56,679 nucleotides of DNA from an uncultured Clostridia bacterium (GCA_944388755.1 CALXJY010000006.1:1-56679), one strand, 5' to 3'; shown: positions 18,171 to 26,363, numbered from the stretch's first letter. Translations and numbers: made by a program. The notes: generated by a model from the letters alone, not told the origin.

Positions 18171-19655
18171 CTATCTTTCTAATTTTATATTTTTCGTTGC
18201 TACTTTTTCTATAAAAATCTCATCGTGTTCCACAAAAATTAGCGTAGGTTTATATTTCAAAATTGCATCTTCAATTTGTTCTCTCGTTAATATATCAATA
18301 AAATTCAAAGGCTCATCCCAAATATAGATGTTAGCTTGTTCTGATATACTTTTTGCAATTAAAACTTTTTTCTTTTGACCTTCACTCATATCTTCTATAT
18401 TGGTATCAAAGTCAGATTTTGATAATCCCATTTTTACTAGCATTGCTTTAAAAATGCTTTCATCTATTTCATTTTTATACACAAATTCTTTTAAATTTCC
18501 ATTTAAATATTCTGTACTTTGAGAAACATAAGATATTTTTATATTGTTTACAACATTTATTTCTCCATCGTATTGTATATTTTGACCTAAAATAAGTTTT
18601 AAAACACTTGATTTACCAATACCATTTTTCCCTACTATTGCAATTCTATCTCCATTATTTACTTCAAAGGAAATAGGCTTAAATATTAATTCATTATTAT
18701 ACTTTATTTGTAATTTATTTACTGAAATTAATGGTGTCTTATTACTTGTTAATGGAATAATTTTTAGTGTATCATTTCTATCTATATTTTTTAATAAATT
18801 AGTCTTTTCATTTATTGCTTTTTGTATTCTTTGTTCCATAACCTTTGATTTTTTCATCATTTTAGCTGATTTATGTCCTAAATAACCTCTGTCTATTGTT
18901 TTCTCCGAATTATTTGTTTTATATTTTGACCTTTCAACTTCATTAGACCATTTTGCAGTATTTCGTGATGCAACTTCTAATTTATTTATATCTTTACTTA
19001 ATTTTTCGTTTTGTACCATTTCAAAATTATCTTTTCTTTCTTTATTTACTTTCCAAGATGAAAAATTTCCTTTTTGTATTTCAATATTAGTATTATTTAT
19101 AGAAATAATATGGTCTACAATTTTGTCTAAAAAAATTCTATCATGAGAAACTACTATAAATCCTTTTTTTCTATCTAAATAGTTAATTAAATTATTCCTC
19201 GTTTCTATATCCAAATGGCTTGTTGGCTCATCTATAAGTAAAAAGTTATTGCCTTTTAAGAATAAACTTATTAAAAGTATTTTTACTTGTTCTCCACCAC
19301 TTAACAAATTAAAATTCCTATAAAGAATTTCTGCATCTGTGTTTAATAAATTTAATTCTTTTATAATTTCCCAATCTTGAACATTTGGAGCTAAATCATT
19401 TACAATTTCTATTGTCAACTTTTCCTTATCTTTAACTTCAAACGGAAAATAATCGACATCCACACTTTTTGATATTGTTCCTTTATATTCATATTTACCT
19501 TGTAATAAATTCAGAAATGTTGTTTTACCTTTTCCATTTCTGCCTATTAACCCTAACTTCCAATCTGTATCTATATTAAATGTTACATTTTCAAATATAT
19601 TGTTATAACTTCCATCATATCCAAATGTTAAATTATTTATACTTATTAATGACAT
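18171..19655 (-). CDS. Lsa-family ABC-F ribosomal protection protein
   Basis: Two NBDs (GRNGKGKT, GKNGIGKS), no TM; N-terminus MSLISINNLTFGYDGSYNNIFENV..IDTDWKLG and linker DRGYLGHKSAKMMK resemble Lsa(E)/Lsa(B) as I recall them. Confidence 0.85.
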   Translation of the reverse strand: MSLISINNLTFGYDGSYNNIFENVTFNIDTDWKLGLIGRNGKGKTTFLNLLQGKYEYKGTISKSVDVDYFPFEVKDKEKLTIEIVNDLAPNVQDWEIIKELNLLNTDAEILYRNFNLLSGGEQVKILLISLFLKGNNFLLIDEPTSHLDIETRNNLINYLDRKKGFIVVSHDRIFLDKIVDHIISINNTNIEIQKGNFSSWKVNKERKDNFEMVQNEKLSKDINKLEVASRNTAKWSNEVERSKYKTNNSEKTIDRGYLGHKSAKMMKKSKVMEQRIQKAINEKTNLLKNIDRNDTLKIIPLTSNKTPLISVNKLQIKYNNELIFKPISFEVNNGDRIAIVGKNGIGKSSVLKLILGQNIQYDGEINVVNNIKISYVSQSTEYLNGNLKEFVYKNEIDESIFKAMLVKMGLSKSDFDTNIEDMSEGQKKKVLIAKSISEQANIYIWDEPLNFIDILTREQIEDAILKYKPTLIFVEHDEIFIEKVATKNIKLER

Positions 19656-19703
19656 TATTTCTCCTAATTTTATACATTCGTTTATATTCTGTAACCATTG
19701 ATA

Positions 19704-19753
19704 TTACTGATTTTTACCACAGCAATTTTTGTATTTCTTCCCACTTCCACATG
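19704..19753 (-). repeat. Displaced copy of the secA 3' end (att junction)
   Basis: Encodes [15 protein letters not shown] with no upstream ORF; shares CATGTGG with secA 23653-23659. Confidence 0.85.
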
Positions 19754-20186
19754 AATTAGAATACTTTGTATTATATATATTTACAATATTTTTGGTATTA
19801 TTAATATTTCAATATTTATAAGGACAAAGTAAGTTTTACATTTATAATATTTATATTATTTACTTTATTATAAGTATTTGTTTTCTGTGAACAAATCGTG
19901 GACATTGTCCACATCCGTTTACTAAGATTAATCCATATTATTGGTAAAAATTATTTATTATTTTCTTACCACTTATATTATATAGCACTTATTAATATTA
20001 ATCAAGTTGATAAAAAAATTTTACCTAAAACTTCGTTAATATTTAAAACTCTAGAATATATCATAAAAAGAATATAATATATGTAATAAATTATCCTATT
20101 CTTGTCTTTAATAACAATGATTCTTCCGATAATTCTAATTTCGTTTTTTCTTCCTAATATATATAATATTCTATTATGAATTAGAA

Positions 20187-20799
20187 TCATATTTCTATAT
20201 TTAGTAATTCACTTATATCTTTAATTTTCTTATAATATTTATCACAATTTCCAAATCCATACTCTGCCCATATAAAGGGTAGTTCATTTTTTATAGCAGA
20301 CTCATAGTCTTTTTGAGTATCCCCAACATATATAGCCTTTAGTATATTATTTCTTTTTAGGACACTATTTATATTTTCATATTTGGTCATTCCTGTATTA
20401 CCAGAACATTCAAAATCCTTGAAAAATTCTTGCAATGAATAATGTTCTATAAATGACTCTATATAACCTGCCTGACAGTTACTTACAATATATAAATCAT
20501 ATTTATTCACTAATTTTTTTATTGTTTTTTATTGTATTTTTATAAATATGACCGCCATTTTCTTTTAAATAATCATTTTCTTTTTCTTGACATTTTGTAA
20601 TAAATTCATTTCCATCTTTATTATTGCCTTTAAATAAGTATTCTATAATTTCTCTTTTAGTAAGTCCCATTATATTTTTTATTTGTTCTTTGCTAATATT
20701 TAATCCATATTCCATTGCAATTTTATTCCAAATCTTTTCTACTTCTACTGTAGTATCCCATAATGTTCCATCTAAATCAAATAATATTGAATTTTTCAA
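20187..20799 (-). pseudogene. HAD family hydrolase split by +1 frameshift in an A run (~20525-20530)
   Basis: FDLDGTLWD in 20503-20799; IVSNCQ, YVGDT..D, YGFG in 20187-20510; deleting one A joins the frames. Confidence 0.85.
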
Positions 20800-20810
20800 T
20801 TTTTAATCTC

Positions 20811-21302
20811 CTAATTTAATTTTAAAAATTCCAAGCAATCTCTAAAAAATTCTGTATGGCTTTCTGAAAATTGCCCATTTTCTATTAATTTTTCAATTTC
20901 TTGTTTCGATGCCCATTTTACATCCTCTAATTCATCTTCTTGAATTTTTATTTTATCTATATTTATGTTCTCTTTTAAATAATAAATATCTACAAAATCA
21001 TCTTCTGTTTTTAAAGTTTTAAATAATATGATATTATTTTCTATTACATTAATTCCTAATTCTTCTTTAATTTCTGTTATAATCCCTTGTTTACTTGTTT
21101 CTCCTGAAACTGGATGTCCTCCTGTTGTAGCCCATTTTCCATCTTTTTTTGCAACTCTTTTTTGTATTAAAAATTCATTTTTATCATTTTGTATAAATAC
21201 AACGACCGTAATATAATATCTTCCTTTAGGCACTTCTTGACCTTTGTAAATTGTTTCTCCTGTCAAAATCTTATTTTCATCATATAAATCTCTTTTCTCC
21301 AT
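20811..21302 (-). CDS. NUDIX hydrolase
   Basis: LIQKR..W..GGHPVSGETSKQGIITEIKEELG Nudix box. Confidence 0.9.
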   Translation of the reverse strand: MEKRDLYDENKILTGETIYKGQEVPKGRYYITVVVFIQNDKNEFLIQKRVAKKDGKWATTGGHPVSGETSKQGIITEIKEELGINVIENNIILFKTLKTEDDFVDIYYLKENINIDKIKIQEDELEDVKWASKQEIEKLIENGQFSESHTEFFRDCLEFLKLN

Positions 21303-21329
21303 TATCAAAAACTCCTTATAAAATTTGTT

Positions 21330-22472
21330 TTATTTTATCACATTTATATATGCATTTTCAAATCTTTCCATATTATATTGTTCTTGCCATCGTTCGTTTG
21401 GTAATTTTCTTTTAAATTCATCATAATTATTTATCACATACAACAACTTATTTTTTAATTCTTCAACACAATTTTTAAATATATAATTATTATCATTGCC
21501 TTTTGCTATCTCATTAAAAGTAGGTATATCATTTAATATAGTAAATATTCCTAAAGATAAAGATTCTAATGCTGAATATCCAAAACTTTCTGATTTGCTA
21601 GGAAGTACACAAACATCTGCAATTTTATATACTTCTGACATATAATCAAATCTTATTATTTTTATATCTACATTATTCTCTTTTGCTTTAGTTGTTAATG
21701 AATCTACAAATTTTTCATATTGTTTATCTAAACCAGTATAAATTATTTCAAATTTTGCCTTATCTTCATTGTTCATTAAACAACAAGCCTCAAGTAGTAA
21801 TTGAGGTTGTTTTTGTTTAGGCTCTAATCTGCTAGGGACAATTATTTTTAATTTTTCATCATTCAAATTATATTGTGTATTAATTTCGTTTTTGGTTTTA
21901 ATTGTTTCCAATCTCGTTACATCAATTGCGTGTGGAATAAAATTTACAGAGCAATCTGTTAATTTGCTATATTCATTTGCATAAAATTCTGATGGTGCAA
22001 CAAATTTAGTTAGTTCATTATCTTTATACTTTTTCATTATTTCAAGTACTTTTTTATAAGACTTTTCACCCCAAGCTAATTTATATTCAAATGGATTCGT
22101 ATGTATAGTAAAAATTCTTTTCTTGTTTGTCCAAGCCTCTAAGAATAATAATGAATTTAATTGTATAAAATCATACTTCCTCATATCTATTTTGTTTTCA
22201 AGTTGTTTTGCTAAATTAGTATATGATTTATTCGTTTCAAAATTTCCAAATGCCTTTTGTACTATATATTCATCTGCCTCCCCTTCCATATTAAATAAGT
22301 TTATATTTATATAATTAACTCCATCTTCTTTATGAGATTTTCCAGAAAACATAAATACATCAACTTGATTATTATTTTTGGCAAAAGACCTTGCTAAATC
22401 CATTACAAATCTTTCTGTTCCACCTATAGCTTTTCTAGATATCGCCCAAGTATTTACTATCGCTATTTTCAT
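21330..22472 (-). CDS. Glycosyltransferase family 4 (GT-B)
   Basis: GGTERF, PSRL..KQ, LPSKSESFGYSALESL; likely start MKIAIV. Confidence 0.88.
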   Translation of the reverse strand: MKIAIVNTWAISRKAIGGTERFVMDLARSFAKNNNQVDVFMFSGKSHKEDGVNYININLFNMEGEADEYIVQKAFGNFETNKSYTNLAKQLENKIDMRKYDFIQLNSLLFLEAWTNKKRIFTIHTNPFEYKLAWGEKSYKKVLEIMKKYKDNELTKFVAPSEFYANEYSKLTDCSVNFIPHAIDVTRLETIKTKNEINTQYNLNDEKLKIIVPSRLEPKQKQPQLLLEACCLMNNEDKAKFEIIYTGLDKQYEKFVDSLTTKAKENNVDIKIIRFDYMSEVYKIADVCVLPSKSESFGYSALESLSLGIFTILNDIPTFNEIAKGNDNNYIFKNCVEELKNKLLYVINNYDEFKRKLPNERWQEQYNMERFENAYINVIK

Positions 22473-22680
22473 TTTTAATAACACACTCTCTTTCTTTTTT
22501 ATTAGATAATCCTGTTTCTTTATTATAATCGACTCGTATTCTGTCTTTAAAGTTGTTCTATTTATTTCTTCCATAATATGCATTTTCTATAATACTTATA
22601 TAATTCTTTTCTGAATTTCTTTGTGAATATTTATATGCTCTATCACTTAAAATTGTATATGTCTTTTCATCAATATTCAT
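22435..22680 (-). pseudogene. 3' fragment of an unknown gene with an in-frame TAG (22558-22560)
   Basis: Frame NIDEKTYTIL..GRNK*NNFKDRIR..ENSDSKYLGDI* overlapping the GT start. Confidence 0.4.
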
Positions 22681-23433
22681 TTTCCTTCAGTTTTGGTTGT
22701 TCCTAAAGACCATCTTCCTTTTTCATCTTTTAATTTTGAATATACAGTTTTATTTATCCTTATTAACCTATTTTTTAAATCAATATCATTCCAGGTTAGA
22801 GCAAATACTTCTCCTGTTCTCATTCCCGTATAACATGCTGTTAAAAATGAATAAGTAAATGTTGTATTATTTTGAAATCTTAATAATATTCTTTCAACTT
22901 CTTCTTTGGTATAAATATGTTTTATTCTGTTTTTTTAACTCAAATGATAAAACTCTTGGAATTTGCAAATCGCATGCTGGATTGTTTTTTATAAAGCCAA
23001 AATAATTAGTAGCATCTCTTAATGAACTCTTAATTACTTTTTGATAATTTCTTAAAGATTCTTTTGATTCTGATTTTTGATATAACTTTAGTAATGTTTG
23101 ATTTAATATATAAGGTGTTAAATTGCAAAGCTTATACTTTCCAATTATCTTTTTTATGGAGTCAAATGATTCTGAATATCTTTTAGCAGTCGAATATTTA
23201 TAGTTTATCTCGAAGTATTCTTTCATCCAATAATCTAAATAATCTGCATAAGACATTTGTGATTCCTTTTTTATTCCACCATTAATATATTCATTATAAG
23301 CTTTCTGCCCTGCTATATATGCTTCATTTTTTGTCTTAAATCCAGATTTAGTTATAGATTTCCTTTTTCCATTAACCTTTGCAATTTCAAACTGATATTG
23401 ATATACTTTTCCTCTTTTTCTAATATTAATCAT
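22677..23433 (-). pseudogene. Tyrosine recombinase/integrase, frameshifted and C-terminally truncated
   Basis: Arm-binding N-term (RKRG..YQY..SGFKTKNEA), SAM-like core; after a frameshift at the T7 run 22930-22936 reads YTGMRTGEVFALTWNDID..TTKTEGK*; no HxxR or Tyr. Confidence 0.9.
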
Positions 23434-23609
23434 TTTTAATCACCCTTTCTTTTTTTATTTTTGTAAAACAAAAAAAGAAGTGTCAACATATTTTCAATGT
23501 TTCAACTTCTTTATTTTCAATACTTCTTGTCCACATTCTTAGATTTTTGTTGACAAATTGTATTTTTAATTTTATTTTTGATATTGCTAAAAGCCTTTAA
23601 ATTGGCTAT

Positions 23610-26363
23610 TTAACTGTTCTTTCCACAACAGTTCTTATACTTTTTACCCGAACCACATGGGCAAGGATCATTTCTGCCTATTTTTGGTCCTTCATTTCTA
23701 ACAGTCTGATTTTGATTAATGTTAATTGCACCTTCACCATCAACACTTTTAATAGCTTCTAAAGCTGCACCTGTTATTCTAGCAGTTTCTTGACGTCTAA
23801 CTTCCCCTTGTTTTCTAATATTCATCAGTATTTTTACAACATCATATTTTATATTTGATGTCATTTCTTCAAACATGTCCATACCTTCCATTCTGTATTT
23901 CACAACTGGATCTTGTTGACCATATGCACGTAAGCCTATACCATCTTTAAGTTCTTCCATACTATCTATATGGTTCATCCATTTTTCATCAACAACCTTT
24001 AAAAGTATAACTCTTTCTAGTTCTCTCATTTGCTCTTCGCCAATATCTGCTTCTTTTTCTGCATATTTTTCTAATGCTAATTTTTTTAATTCTTCTTTTA
24101 CTTTTTCAGGATTTTTTTCGTTTTGTTTTAAAAATTCTGTCATTTCAATAGATAAATTATTTTTTATTTCATTATCTAATGATTCTATTTCTAAATGTGT
24201 ATGACCATGTTCATCTCCTGATATATATGTGTCTACAATTTCGTCTGATACACTATTTATCATATTTGTCATATTTTCTTTTAGATTTTCTCCATCAAGT
24301 ACTTCTCGCCTTTGTTTATATATAATTTCCCTTTGCACATTATTTACATCATCGTATTTTAATACATTTTTACGTGTTGCAAAATTTCTACCTTCTACTT
24401 TCTTTTGGGCATTTTCAACTGCTTTTGAAATCATTCTTGCTTCTATTGGCATATTTTCATCTGCACCTAATGTGTTATATACTTTTGTAATTGTGTTTCC
24501 TCCAAAAATTTTCATTAAATCATCATCAAGTGCTATATAAAATTTGGATTCTCCTGGATCTCCTTGACGTCCACTACGACCTCTTAATTGGTTATCTATT
24601 CTTCTTGATTCATGTCTTTCTGTACCAATTATTTTTAATCCTCCTGCTTCAATTACTTTTTGTTTTTCTTCTTTAATATCTTCATCATATTTTGTAACTA
24701 ATTCTTTAAATTGTTCTCTTGCTCTTAGAATGTCTTGATCATCTGTTTCATAATATGTGTTTGATTCTTCTATTAAATTTGCAGGTACTTTTTTTCTTGC
24801 CATTTCTTCTTTTGCTAGATATTCACTGTTACCTCCAAGCATAATATCTGTACCACGTCCGGCCATATTTGTTGCTATTGTAACAGCTCCAAATTTACCA
24901 GCCTGTGCAACAATCATTGCTTCTTTTTCATGTGATTTTGCATTTAATACTTCATGTGGTATTCTTTCTTTTTGTAATAATTTACTTAGTTTTTCTGATT
25001 TTTCAATTGAAACTGTACCTATTAAAACTGGTTGTCCTTTTTTGTGACTTTCTTTTACACTTTCAACTACAGCTCTAAATTTTGCATTTTCATTTTTATA
25101 TATAACATCATTTTCATCTTTACGTATCATTGGCTTATTTGTAGGAATAGATATTACATCTAAATTATATATTTCTTCAAATTCTGCTTCTTCTGTCATA
25201 GCTGTACCTGTCATACCTGCTAATTTTCCATACATTCTAAAATAATTTTGGAAAGTAATTGTTGCAAGTGTTTTAGATTCATCAGCTATTTTTACATGTT
25301 CTTTTGCTTCTATTGCTTGATGTAAACCATTATTATATCTTCTTCCATACATAATACGTCCTGTAAATTCATCTACAATTAATACTTCTCCATTTTTTAC
25401 AATATAATCTATATCTTTTTTCATAACTCCATGTGCACGTAATGCTTGGTTTACATGATGAACTAAACTTGAATTTTCTAAGTCATTGAAGTTATCTAAT
25501 TTAAAATATTCTTCTGCTTTTTTTATACCTTTTTGTGTTAATGATGCAGATTTTGCTTTTAAGTCTACTATATAGTCATATTTTTCATTATCTTCTGCTT
25601 GGTCAAAATCTTTTACATCTTCTTCTACAATTACTTTTGGTTCTAACCTTTTAACAAAATCTTCTGCCTTTTTATATAAATCTGATGACTCATTTGCTCT
25701 ACCTGAAATTATAAGTGGTGTACGAGCTTCATCAATTAAAATACTATCAATTTCGTCTACTATTGCATAATGTAATTCACGTTGTACTAATTGATTTTTA
25801 TAAATTACCATATTATCTCTTAAATAGTCAAATCCAAATTCATTGTTTGTACCATATGTTACATCTGCTGAATATGCTTTTTGTTTTTGAGCAGGTTCCA
25901 TTCCTGCAATAACAAGTCCTACAGAAAGTCCAAGGAATTTATATAATTTTCCCATCCATTCACTATCTCTTTTTGCTAGGTAATCATTAACTGTAACCAC
26001 ATGTACTCCTTTTCCTTCTAAGGCATTTAAATAAACTGGAAGTGTTGCTACAAGTGTTTTTCCTTCACCAGTTTTCATCTCTGCAATTCTTCCTTGATGT
26101 AATATTATTCCACCTATTAATTGTACATCAAAATGCCTTAATCCTAAAGTTCTTTTAGATGCTTCTCTTACAACTGCAAATGCTTCTGGTAATATATCAT
26201 CTAGAGTTTTTCCCTCTTTTAATTTATTTTTAAAATAATCTGTTTTTGCTCTTAATTCACTATCACTTAATTTAGAAATCTCTTCTTCTAAACTATTTAT
26301 TTGTTTTACTATAGGCATTACCCTTTTAACTTCCTTTTCGCTATATGATTTAAATAGTTTCAT
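23610..26363 (-). CDS. secA: Preprotein translocase subunit SecA
   Basis: [64 protein letters not shown]. Confidence 0.99.

Follow-up and report, generated by a model that had tools for sequence, protein, structure and literature searches.

A probable integrative island in the SEC-C tail of secA in an uncultured gut Clostridia bacterium

The locus and its two SEC-C tails

The DNA considered here is a stretch of 56,679 nucleotides from an uncultured Clostridia bacterium (GCA_944388755.1 CALXJY010000006.1:1-56679), called the window below. On its minus strand, secA, the gene of the essential export ATPase, is followed by a 176-nt arm, a broken tyrosine integrase gene, genes for a family-4 glycosyltransferase (GT4), a NUDIX hydrolase and a two-piece HAD hydrolase, a 430-nt AT-rich arm and, finally, a displaced copy of the secA 3' end. 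This arrangement is probably a 3.9-kb integrative island, belonging to a lambda-type tyrosine-integrase family, that lies in the SEC-C tail of secA, most likely through tandem accretion followed by deletion, and that is now fixed. The features on which this reading rests are given here in the order of transcription.

23610-26363, minus strand: secA, complete open reading frame (ORF) of 917 aa, with Pfam domains SecA_DEAD, P-loop_SecA, SecA_SW and SecA_PP_bind, and the SEC-C zinc motif at the end
23653-23659, minus strand: attL core CATGTGG of the attachment (att) site, putative crossover region, within the Pro-Cys-Gly codons of secA (shared run; same starting bases in orphan tails elsewhere)
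23610-23652, minus strand: putative element-borne replacement tail that completes secA, 14 residues and the stop (TCN serine codon statistics; orphan-position copies in loci L150 and L152)
23434-23609, minus strand: left arm (P arm), from the tail to the integrase, holding ATGTGGACAA at plus-strand positions 23527-23536 (arm comparison)
22894-23433, minus strand: N-terminal integrase ORF, 179 aa, with arm-binding and core-binding domains (Pfam Arm-DNA-bind_4, Phage_int_SAM_3)
22683-22946, minus strand: integrase frame break at an A-run (plus-strand T-run 22940-22946) and the leftover start of the catalytic domain in the other frame (three-frame translation, tblastn, Pfam)
19754-20186, minus strand: right arm (P' arm), with an imperfect palindrome and a third half-site at 19887-19913 (TGTGGACAATGTCCACGATTTGTTCAC, minus strand)
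19747-19753, minus strand: attR core CATGTGG (sequence and alignment)
19704-19754, minus strand: orphan SEC-C tail, displaced and non-coding (no start codon, stops upstream)

The secA gene is whole up to its end. The SEC-C Pfam match is intact at residues 897-915, and the final codons, CCA TGT GGT TCG GGT AAA AAG TAT AAG AAC TGT TGT GGA AAG AAC AGT TAA, close with a stop at 23610-23612. The orphan reads TCA TGT GGA AGT GGG AAG AAA TAC AAA AAT TGC TGT GGT AAA AAT CAG TAA; it has no start codon and meets stops 19 codons upstream, and is therefore not a gene. Alignment of the two copies leaves CATGTGG as the sole run common to both where their similarity begins (CCACATG on the plus strand, at 23653-23659 and 19747-19753, with a spacing of 3906 bp). 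Past this run 12 of 13 codons differ between the copies, every one of them synonymously, and the same 14 residues follow CATGTGG at both ends of the island. A preliminary description of the window had pointed to both copies, to the 7-bp run and to the synonymous codons, and all of this held when codons, coordinates and peptide likeness were re-read on the minus strand and the copies were aligned. It had also forecast that a nucleotide repeat search would miss the pair, and the repeat finder indeed does not list it. A degenerate pattern for the tail matches the source genome exactly twice, and the window holds these same two matches only, whereas the reversed pattern, used as a control, gave no match across 338 genomes of the genus. 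Neither a third tail nor a second right-arm motif is present in the 56.7-kb window.

The ORF that begins 176 nt past the secA stop carries the two DNA-binding domains named above, and this integrase N-terminus is 71-82% identical to 23 loci in 22 other species. A 48-aa fragment (22677-22823) matches Pfam Phage_integrase. The catalytic domain survives only as its beginning, about 85 codons in another frame, and everything past ...LGTTKTEG is deleted; tblastn of integrase relatives matches 22934-22683 only. The relatives, among which complete genes exist, run about 150 residues further and hold most of the catalytic residues there. Pfam matches, three-frame translation and tblastn thus agree with the preliminary description, which had called this gene an integrase pseudogene 176 bp past the secA stop. 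No second close integrase copy was found in the source genome. Since the integrase is out of frame and its catalytic part is lost, the island is dead and now fixed, and this copy is unable to excise by itself.

The locus combines the features by which site-specific islands are recognised, namely a tyrosine integrase at one end, an att core as a direct repeat and a target gene that is kept intact. Site-specific recombination would have placed the island in the Pro-Cys-Gly codons (CCATGTGG) with which the SEC-C zinc motif opens, and its attP would carry a copy of its own of the remaining 14 codons. After integration, the DNA of the element (23610-23652) would complete secA, and the earlier tail would have been displaced 3.9 kb downstream, where it would persist as a dead remnant (19704-19754). 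At least two successive integrations, i.e., tandem accretion, would have taken place at the locus before a deletion. From the comparisons below we infer the cleavage positions at the CATGTGG core, and with them the exact crossover bases, as well as the order of events and a past mobility of this copy.

Tails and integrases in the genus and beyond

The arrangement is not confined to the window. The tail pattern occurs in 251 of the 338 genus genomes, and 81 of the 338 contain at least two copies (a hand count of the result table). Multiple tails often lie on one contig and strand, 1-22 kb apart. In 20 multi-tail regions that were fetched, 23 of the 24 tails located off secA have at most 55 open codons upstream, and all orphan tails start at (C)CATGTGG or CCTTGTGG, that is, at the Pro-Cys-Gly codons; 23 orphan tails of other genomes have this junction. 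In three loci, three tails follow one another.

Further support was provided by the position of the integrases. Of 30 secA loci from other species, 8 have an integrase homologue no more than 1.5 kb away from the secA stop. In a set of integrases like that of the window (24 loci from 23 species, window included), a tail lies upstream of the integrase in 18 of the 24 loci, on secA in 16 and as an orphan in 2, at a distance of 190-260 nt in 15 loci and of 0.9-1.2 kb in 3. Two of the six loci without an upstream tail sit at contig edges. An alignment of six complete integrases was then used as the query for a wider search in named metagenome-assembled genomes from several orders; it returned 80 loci, 42 of which have a SEC-C tail within 3 kb, in genomes labelled as uncultured Clostridium, Clostridia, Bacilli, Tenericutes, Mollicutes, Erysipelotrichaceae, Anaeroplasmataceae and Candidatus Coprovivens. 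Within L195-L250, 39 loci have a downstream tail, and in most of them this orphan lies 1.52-1.69 kb past the integrase start.

The linkage between integrase and secA, which the preliminary description had named as a check, is borne out by each of these counts. Together with the common junction and the joint travel of tail and integrase, which are likewise observed across these loci, it supports the central proposal of that description, i.e., that an element occupies the SEC-C codons of secA and supplies a tail equivalent in protein and divergent in DNA. The nearest relative of the window's element (integrase 79% identical) is found in genome G048, where a decaying orphan tail with a one-base indel (L062:8250-8320) lies 1.1 kb before prfB. 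As this decayed orphan carries an indel, the strict tail pattern must miss some occupied sites.

Which of the two tails belongs to the element is indicated by the serine codon. A TCN codon is present in 17 of 18 tails upstream of window-like integrases (TCG in 16) vs 19 of 59 other tails. Moreover, L150 and L152 contain this combination of tail, arm and integrase behind another element, with the tail as an orphan. From this bias and these copies it follows that the tail upstream of the integrase, which here completes secA, is element DNA. An attempt to assign ownership from nucleotide identities between the window and 14 relatives, taken separately for the body of secA, the tail, the arm and the integrase, was set aside; the tail is 70-93% and the body 73-85% identical, and the comparison does not decide ownership because the tail is constrained.

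The ends of the elements have an architecture of their own. All 16 element right ends compared have an imperfect palindrome and a third half-site upstream of the core, about 150-165 nt away in most and nearer in L053, with right-arm words that differ from one element family to another. DNA similar to the right end of the window is present in other genomes. Where the integrase belongs to the family of about 430 aa, words of 14-24 nt recur between the left and the right arm, a length reached by only 0-4 of 200 shuffles. In the window, an exact 12-nt repeat, ATGAATTAGAAT, is found at the attR junction (19751-19762) and just behind the HAD stop (20176-20187); it may be due to chance in AT-rich DNA.

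Cargo, neighbours and the probable order of integrations

The remaining features are the cargo genes and what lies behind the orphan tail.

21330-22583, minus strand: family-4 glycosyltransferase, cargo, listed ORF 417 aa (Pfam Glycos_transf_1, Glyco_transf_4, GT4-conflict at 32.2 bits)
20811-21308, minus strand: NUDIX hydrolase, cargo (Pfam NUDIX; PADLOC candidate family PDC-S07, E 2.6e-12)
20187-20799, minus strand: HAD-family hydrolase, cargo, two ORFs in this assembly (Pfam HAD_2 on both halves)
19688-19703, minus strand: 16 bases past the orphan stop, tatcaatggttacaga, matching the left flank typical of a second element family
18171-19655, minus strand: Lsa-family ABC-F gene of the ribosomal-protection type, a neighbour not shown to be part of the element (NCBIfam profiles)

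The true start of the glycosyltransferase is probably the later MKIAIV. Homologues of the NUDIX gene are cargo of secA-tail elements in L044 and L051, and PADLOC gave no match for GT4 or HAD. The HAD split (window 20503-20530) is one extra base in a T-run; contigs from all four other sequencing runs that were compared have one base fewer at 20525 and an unsplit HAD, and the split is therefore specific to this strain or assembly. No relaxase, coupling protein or other conjugation or mobilisation gene is found among the island ORFs, an origin of transfer (oriT) not having been searched for, and capsid, terminase, replication and repressor genes are equally missing from these ORFs. Cargo families sampled from 10 clusters of related islands include no structural phage genes. 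By gene content, then, the island is not an integrative and conjugative element (ICE), an integrative and mobilizable element (IME) or a prophage.

The ABC-F gene starts 49 nt past the orphan tail and scores 702.7 bits with NCBIfam ABCF_Lsa_all (cutoff 750) and 467.9 bits with ribo_prot_ABC_F (cutoff 380). DNA 75-81% identical to it is present in one other genus genome and in three genomes from two other families of the order, and in two further genomes it is deleted or fragmentary. In the four other genomes the homology ends at the ORF ends and is never preceded by a tail. Because it stops at the ORF, this context is uninformative on a mobile unit.

Unoccupied secA ends in the genus look different: a terminator hairpin comes first and prfB, the usual and ancestral neighbour of secA, comes next, no more than 1.5 kb away in 8 of 30 loci; in G048 hairpin and prfB appear again behind the element. 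In the source genome prfB is on contig C4 (G000 C4:63150-64753), at the contig end, and at least 19.7 kb of other genes, the Lsa-type ABC-F gene first, lie behind the orphan tail. This prfB shows its own known +1 frameshift site in translation and lies behind a stretch read as a putative tRNA gene. The ends of both contigs, C4 and the one that bears secA, are repeats common to further contigs. A flank of the tatcaatggttacaga type follows the tails ahead of integrases of about 430 aa (L051, L053, L059, L009, L043 and others) and is absent from unoccupied secA ends. Another locus, L027 (G010), has secA with a tail of the window type and about 35 nt matching the left arm, prfB 376 nt past the stop and no integrase; it looks like a scar, in which an element-borne tail was kept after the loss of the element.

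A single integration would be the simplest reading of the two-copy anatomy. The orphan would be the original tail of the host and the ABC-F gene its original neighbour, and excision would rejoin them; the preliminary description had taken the orphan for the host's tail in this way and had expected an empty allele in which secA ends in GKNQ and is directly followed by the ABC-F gene. The orphan does start exactly at the core and the window does contain only two tails, and yet we consider this course of events unlikely, since unoccupied secA genes in the genus are followed by the terminator and prfB, prfB here lies on another contig while other DNA stands behind the orphan, the orphan's flank is that of an element family, and ABC-F homology elsewhere is limited to the ORF and never tail-preceded. 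Neither the native tail nor the expected allele is thus supported. The orphan is probably not native. Most simply, the secA-proximal core would have taken up two elements one after the other, and the older one would since have been largely lost; tandem accretion is likely because the orphan has the flank of another family and prfB is not behind it. A very different route, in which a cassette entered through homologous or homology-facilitated recombination in the conserved tail, as in the C-terminal displacement at rhs and contact-dependent inhibition (CDI) loci, without the integrase, could draw on the conserved stretch present on both incoming and resident DNA and on the islands that have no recognisable integrase (L053, L060). 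It is hardly credible, given that at every locus homology sets in, on its left side, at the same few bases, that integrases with arm-binding domains adjoin the tails, that the arms carry family-specific repeated sites, and that adjacent tails are too unlike each other for homologous exchange.

The synonymous divergence of the tails calls for a judgement of its own. The preliminary description had raised the possibility that recoding is an adaptation against excision, i.e., that tails are selected to be maximally unlike the resident one, thereby suppressing RecA-dependent deletion between direct repeats. The window pair speaks for it, and against our reading of the tails, as it is unusually divergent, with differences at 10 of the 12 codons compared, a value reached by only 1.4% of random pairs. 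However, the 19 adjacent tail pairs from other loci differ on average at 5.3 of the 12 codons, which is not above the 5.76 for all pairs among 63 tails; pairs with only 2-3 differences occur in L054, L058 and L059; the repeats are merely about 48 bp long; and the icd ends at the cryptic prophage e14 show the same kind of synonymous differences, with no such claim in the part of the source available (PMC13626634). Adaptive recoding is therefore highly improbable, and the alternative already offered in the preliminary description, plain saturation, fits the comparison. As adjacent pairs are no more divergent than random ones, the elements do not systematically carry tails unlike the resident. 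The tail differences reflect separate ancestry under strong protein-level constraint, not designed recoding, and the window pair brings together two nucleotide versions, each of them common, of a peptide whose amino acids are fixed.

Several other points weigh against an island formed by tandem accretion. The flank match behind the orphan is short, only 16 bases. A conspecific empty or differently filled site was not found among 121 genomes of the genus, which is very diverse, and among metagenome contigs, where the best relatives of the secA C-terminus have 80% and 79% protein identity, respectively, and for this reason the order of events is inferred from other species. The 10-nt word common to the arms of the window, ATGTGGACAA, is within chance (131 of 200 shuffles reach it), and it can only be suggested as an arm site. 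No excisionase gene was identified. Finally, no listed contig from other samples spans either core, the unitigs ending at 19724-19726 and 23652; the junctions are therefore confirmed by analogy with other genomes and not by an independent assembly of the species.

The stretch is contained in 20 sequencing runs, mostly from chicken gut and none of them of RNA, and contigs of four of them were compared with the window. X5 contigs tile the island with 1-3 differences per 0.9-1.6 kb and end at both cores, and none of the contigs listed for the four runs skips the island from core to core. One X14 contig returns from 23648 to 19864, its shorter side measuring 59 letters; this joint, which could stem from a circle or from a related element copied in tandem, is weak evidence. 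Joints whose shorter side falls below 30 letters (19753 to 23964 is one) were discounted as unreliable. Loose contig ends at 19751 and 23653 show other secA bodies or tails and are not assignable to this species. Contigs of three of the four runs carry one extra base behind 22929, and the frame state of the integrase remnant therefore varies between samples. A 4.8-kb X14 contig covers the GT4-NUDIX-HAD block (window 20024-22683) with 7 differences and is unlike the window at both ends; this cargo block may also exist in another context.

The split integrase frame, known systems and the meaning of the site

The frame break is not peculiar to the window. All 24 window-like integrase genes, from 23 species, have a first frame of 171-199 codons that ends at an A-run, which counts 8 A in 19 loci and 7 A in the other 5. 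None of the genes has its catalytic half in frame. Nineteen of the 24 have this half in the -1 frame, with 208-259 open codons or an opening that reaches the locus end; one has it in the +1 frame, and in four, the window included, it is broken. Integrase relatives with about 50% identity are each encoded by one ORF of 422-539 aa. In the 96 nt behind the A-run (14 loci), the variable columns number 12, 9 and 26 by codon position of the shifted frame, and ATG, GTG and TTG are missing from that frame in 11 of the 14 loci. By this pattern, the segment evolves as coding DNA, mostly without a start of its own. No stimulatory or conserved RNA structure was predicted behind the A-run (0 pairs on 12 sequences).

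Programmed -1 slippage is probably at work in this integrase subfamily, as judged from sequence comparison. A more far-reaching scheme is offered tentatively, as a possibility that falls slightly short of an even chance. In it, the subfamily would never be single-frame, and the full-length integrase would need a rare -1 slip by the ribosome or by RNA polymerase. The default product would be a non-catalytic, arm- and core-binding brake or directionality factor, similar to OrfA in an OrfA/OrfAB pair, and the whole, with docking at the secA tail, would form a widespread island system. Frameshifting by -1 or transcriptional slippage at A-runs is known from the IS3 and IS1 transposases, with OrfA and OrfAB, and from Thermus dnaX. 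As in these systems, a short product and a long fusion would come from two overlapping frames joined at a homopolymer; the difference is that a tyrosine integrase is concerned here, with the break between its DNA-binding half and its catalytic half. No printed case of a tyrosine integrase with a programmed frameshift was found in the literature searched. If the slippage is programmed, a principle of control known from transposases would operate in tyrosine integrases, for which we did not find it described.

The 3' end of icd is used by phage 21 as well as by the cryptic prophage e14. In Escherichia coli, e14 supplies a replacement end and the displaced end persists as the pseudogene icdC, the two ends differing mostly at synonymous sites, according to the part of the source available (PMC13626634, citing Hill et al. 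1989). To that extent the likeness is close, with the 3' end of a housekeeping gene as target, an end supplied by the element, a displaced end that persists and mostly synonymous differences. Unlike e14/icd, the target here is the zinc-finger tail of secA, identity is limited to 7 bases, the islands are small and lack phage genes, and the site is used in many species by several integrase subfamilies, often in tandem. In streptococci, gene 3' ends are targets as well, fda among them. Accretion of ICEs, IMEs and cis-mobilizable elements (CIMEs) is described there at gene 3' ends such as rpsI and rplL (available parts of PMC4701971, PMC5704250 and PMC5357655), and these arrays resemble the present case, as far as those parts go, in their tyrosine integrases at conserved gene ends and in the stacking of elements in tandem at one att site. 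They differ from it in that the window's island has no conjugation or mobilisation gene seen and the hosts are uncultured small-genome gut Bacillota.

The name secA has zero occurrences in the available parts of these streptococcal and Firmicute surveys of ICEs and IMEs (PMC4701971, PMC5704250, PMC5357655). Phage phiEf11, in the part of PMC12540744 available, has its att site in ffs, which encodes the 4.5S RNA of the signal recognition particle; the 27 nt of its core are identical. Both att sites, on this account, lie in an essential gene of protein export; ffs is an RNA gene with a 27-nt core, whereas secA contributes a protein tail, with a 7-nt core and similarity at the protein level. No paper naming secA as an attachment site was found in a search that did not extend to supplements, which may list more targets; one candidate report (10.1101/2022.10.18.512807) mentions only SecA2. 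The integration trick seen at this locus is a classical one; the target gene is one for which no printed precedent was found.

The zinc-finger tail of secA joins a short list of protein-gene ends that integrative elements use as docking sites, and in one large uncultured gut genus about a quarter of the species have one or more islands of this kind. Accessory genes and candidate defence genes accumulate at the site, and in the source genome the displaced tail stands directly ahead of a ribosomal-protection gene of the Lsa type. Foreign DNA has repeatedly replaced the C-terminus of this essential export ATPase while the protein stayed unchanged, a replacement that annotation by nucleotide repeats misses. 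If the scheme of a slippage-controlled, secA-docking island system is true, the end of this essential gene would be, in practice, mobile DNA.

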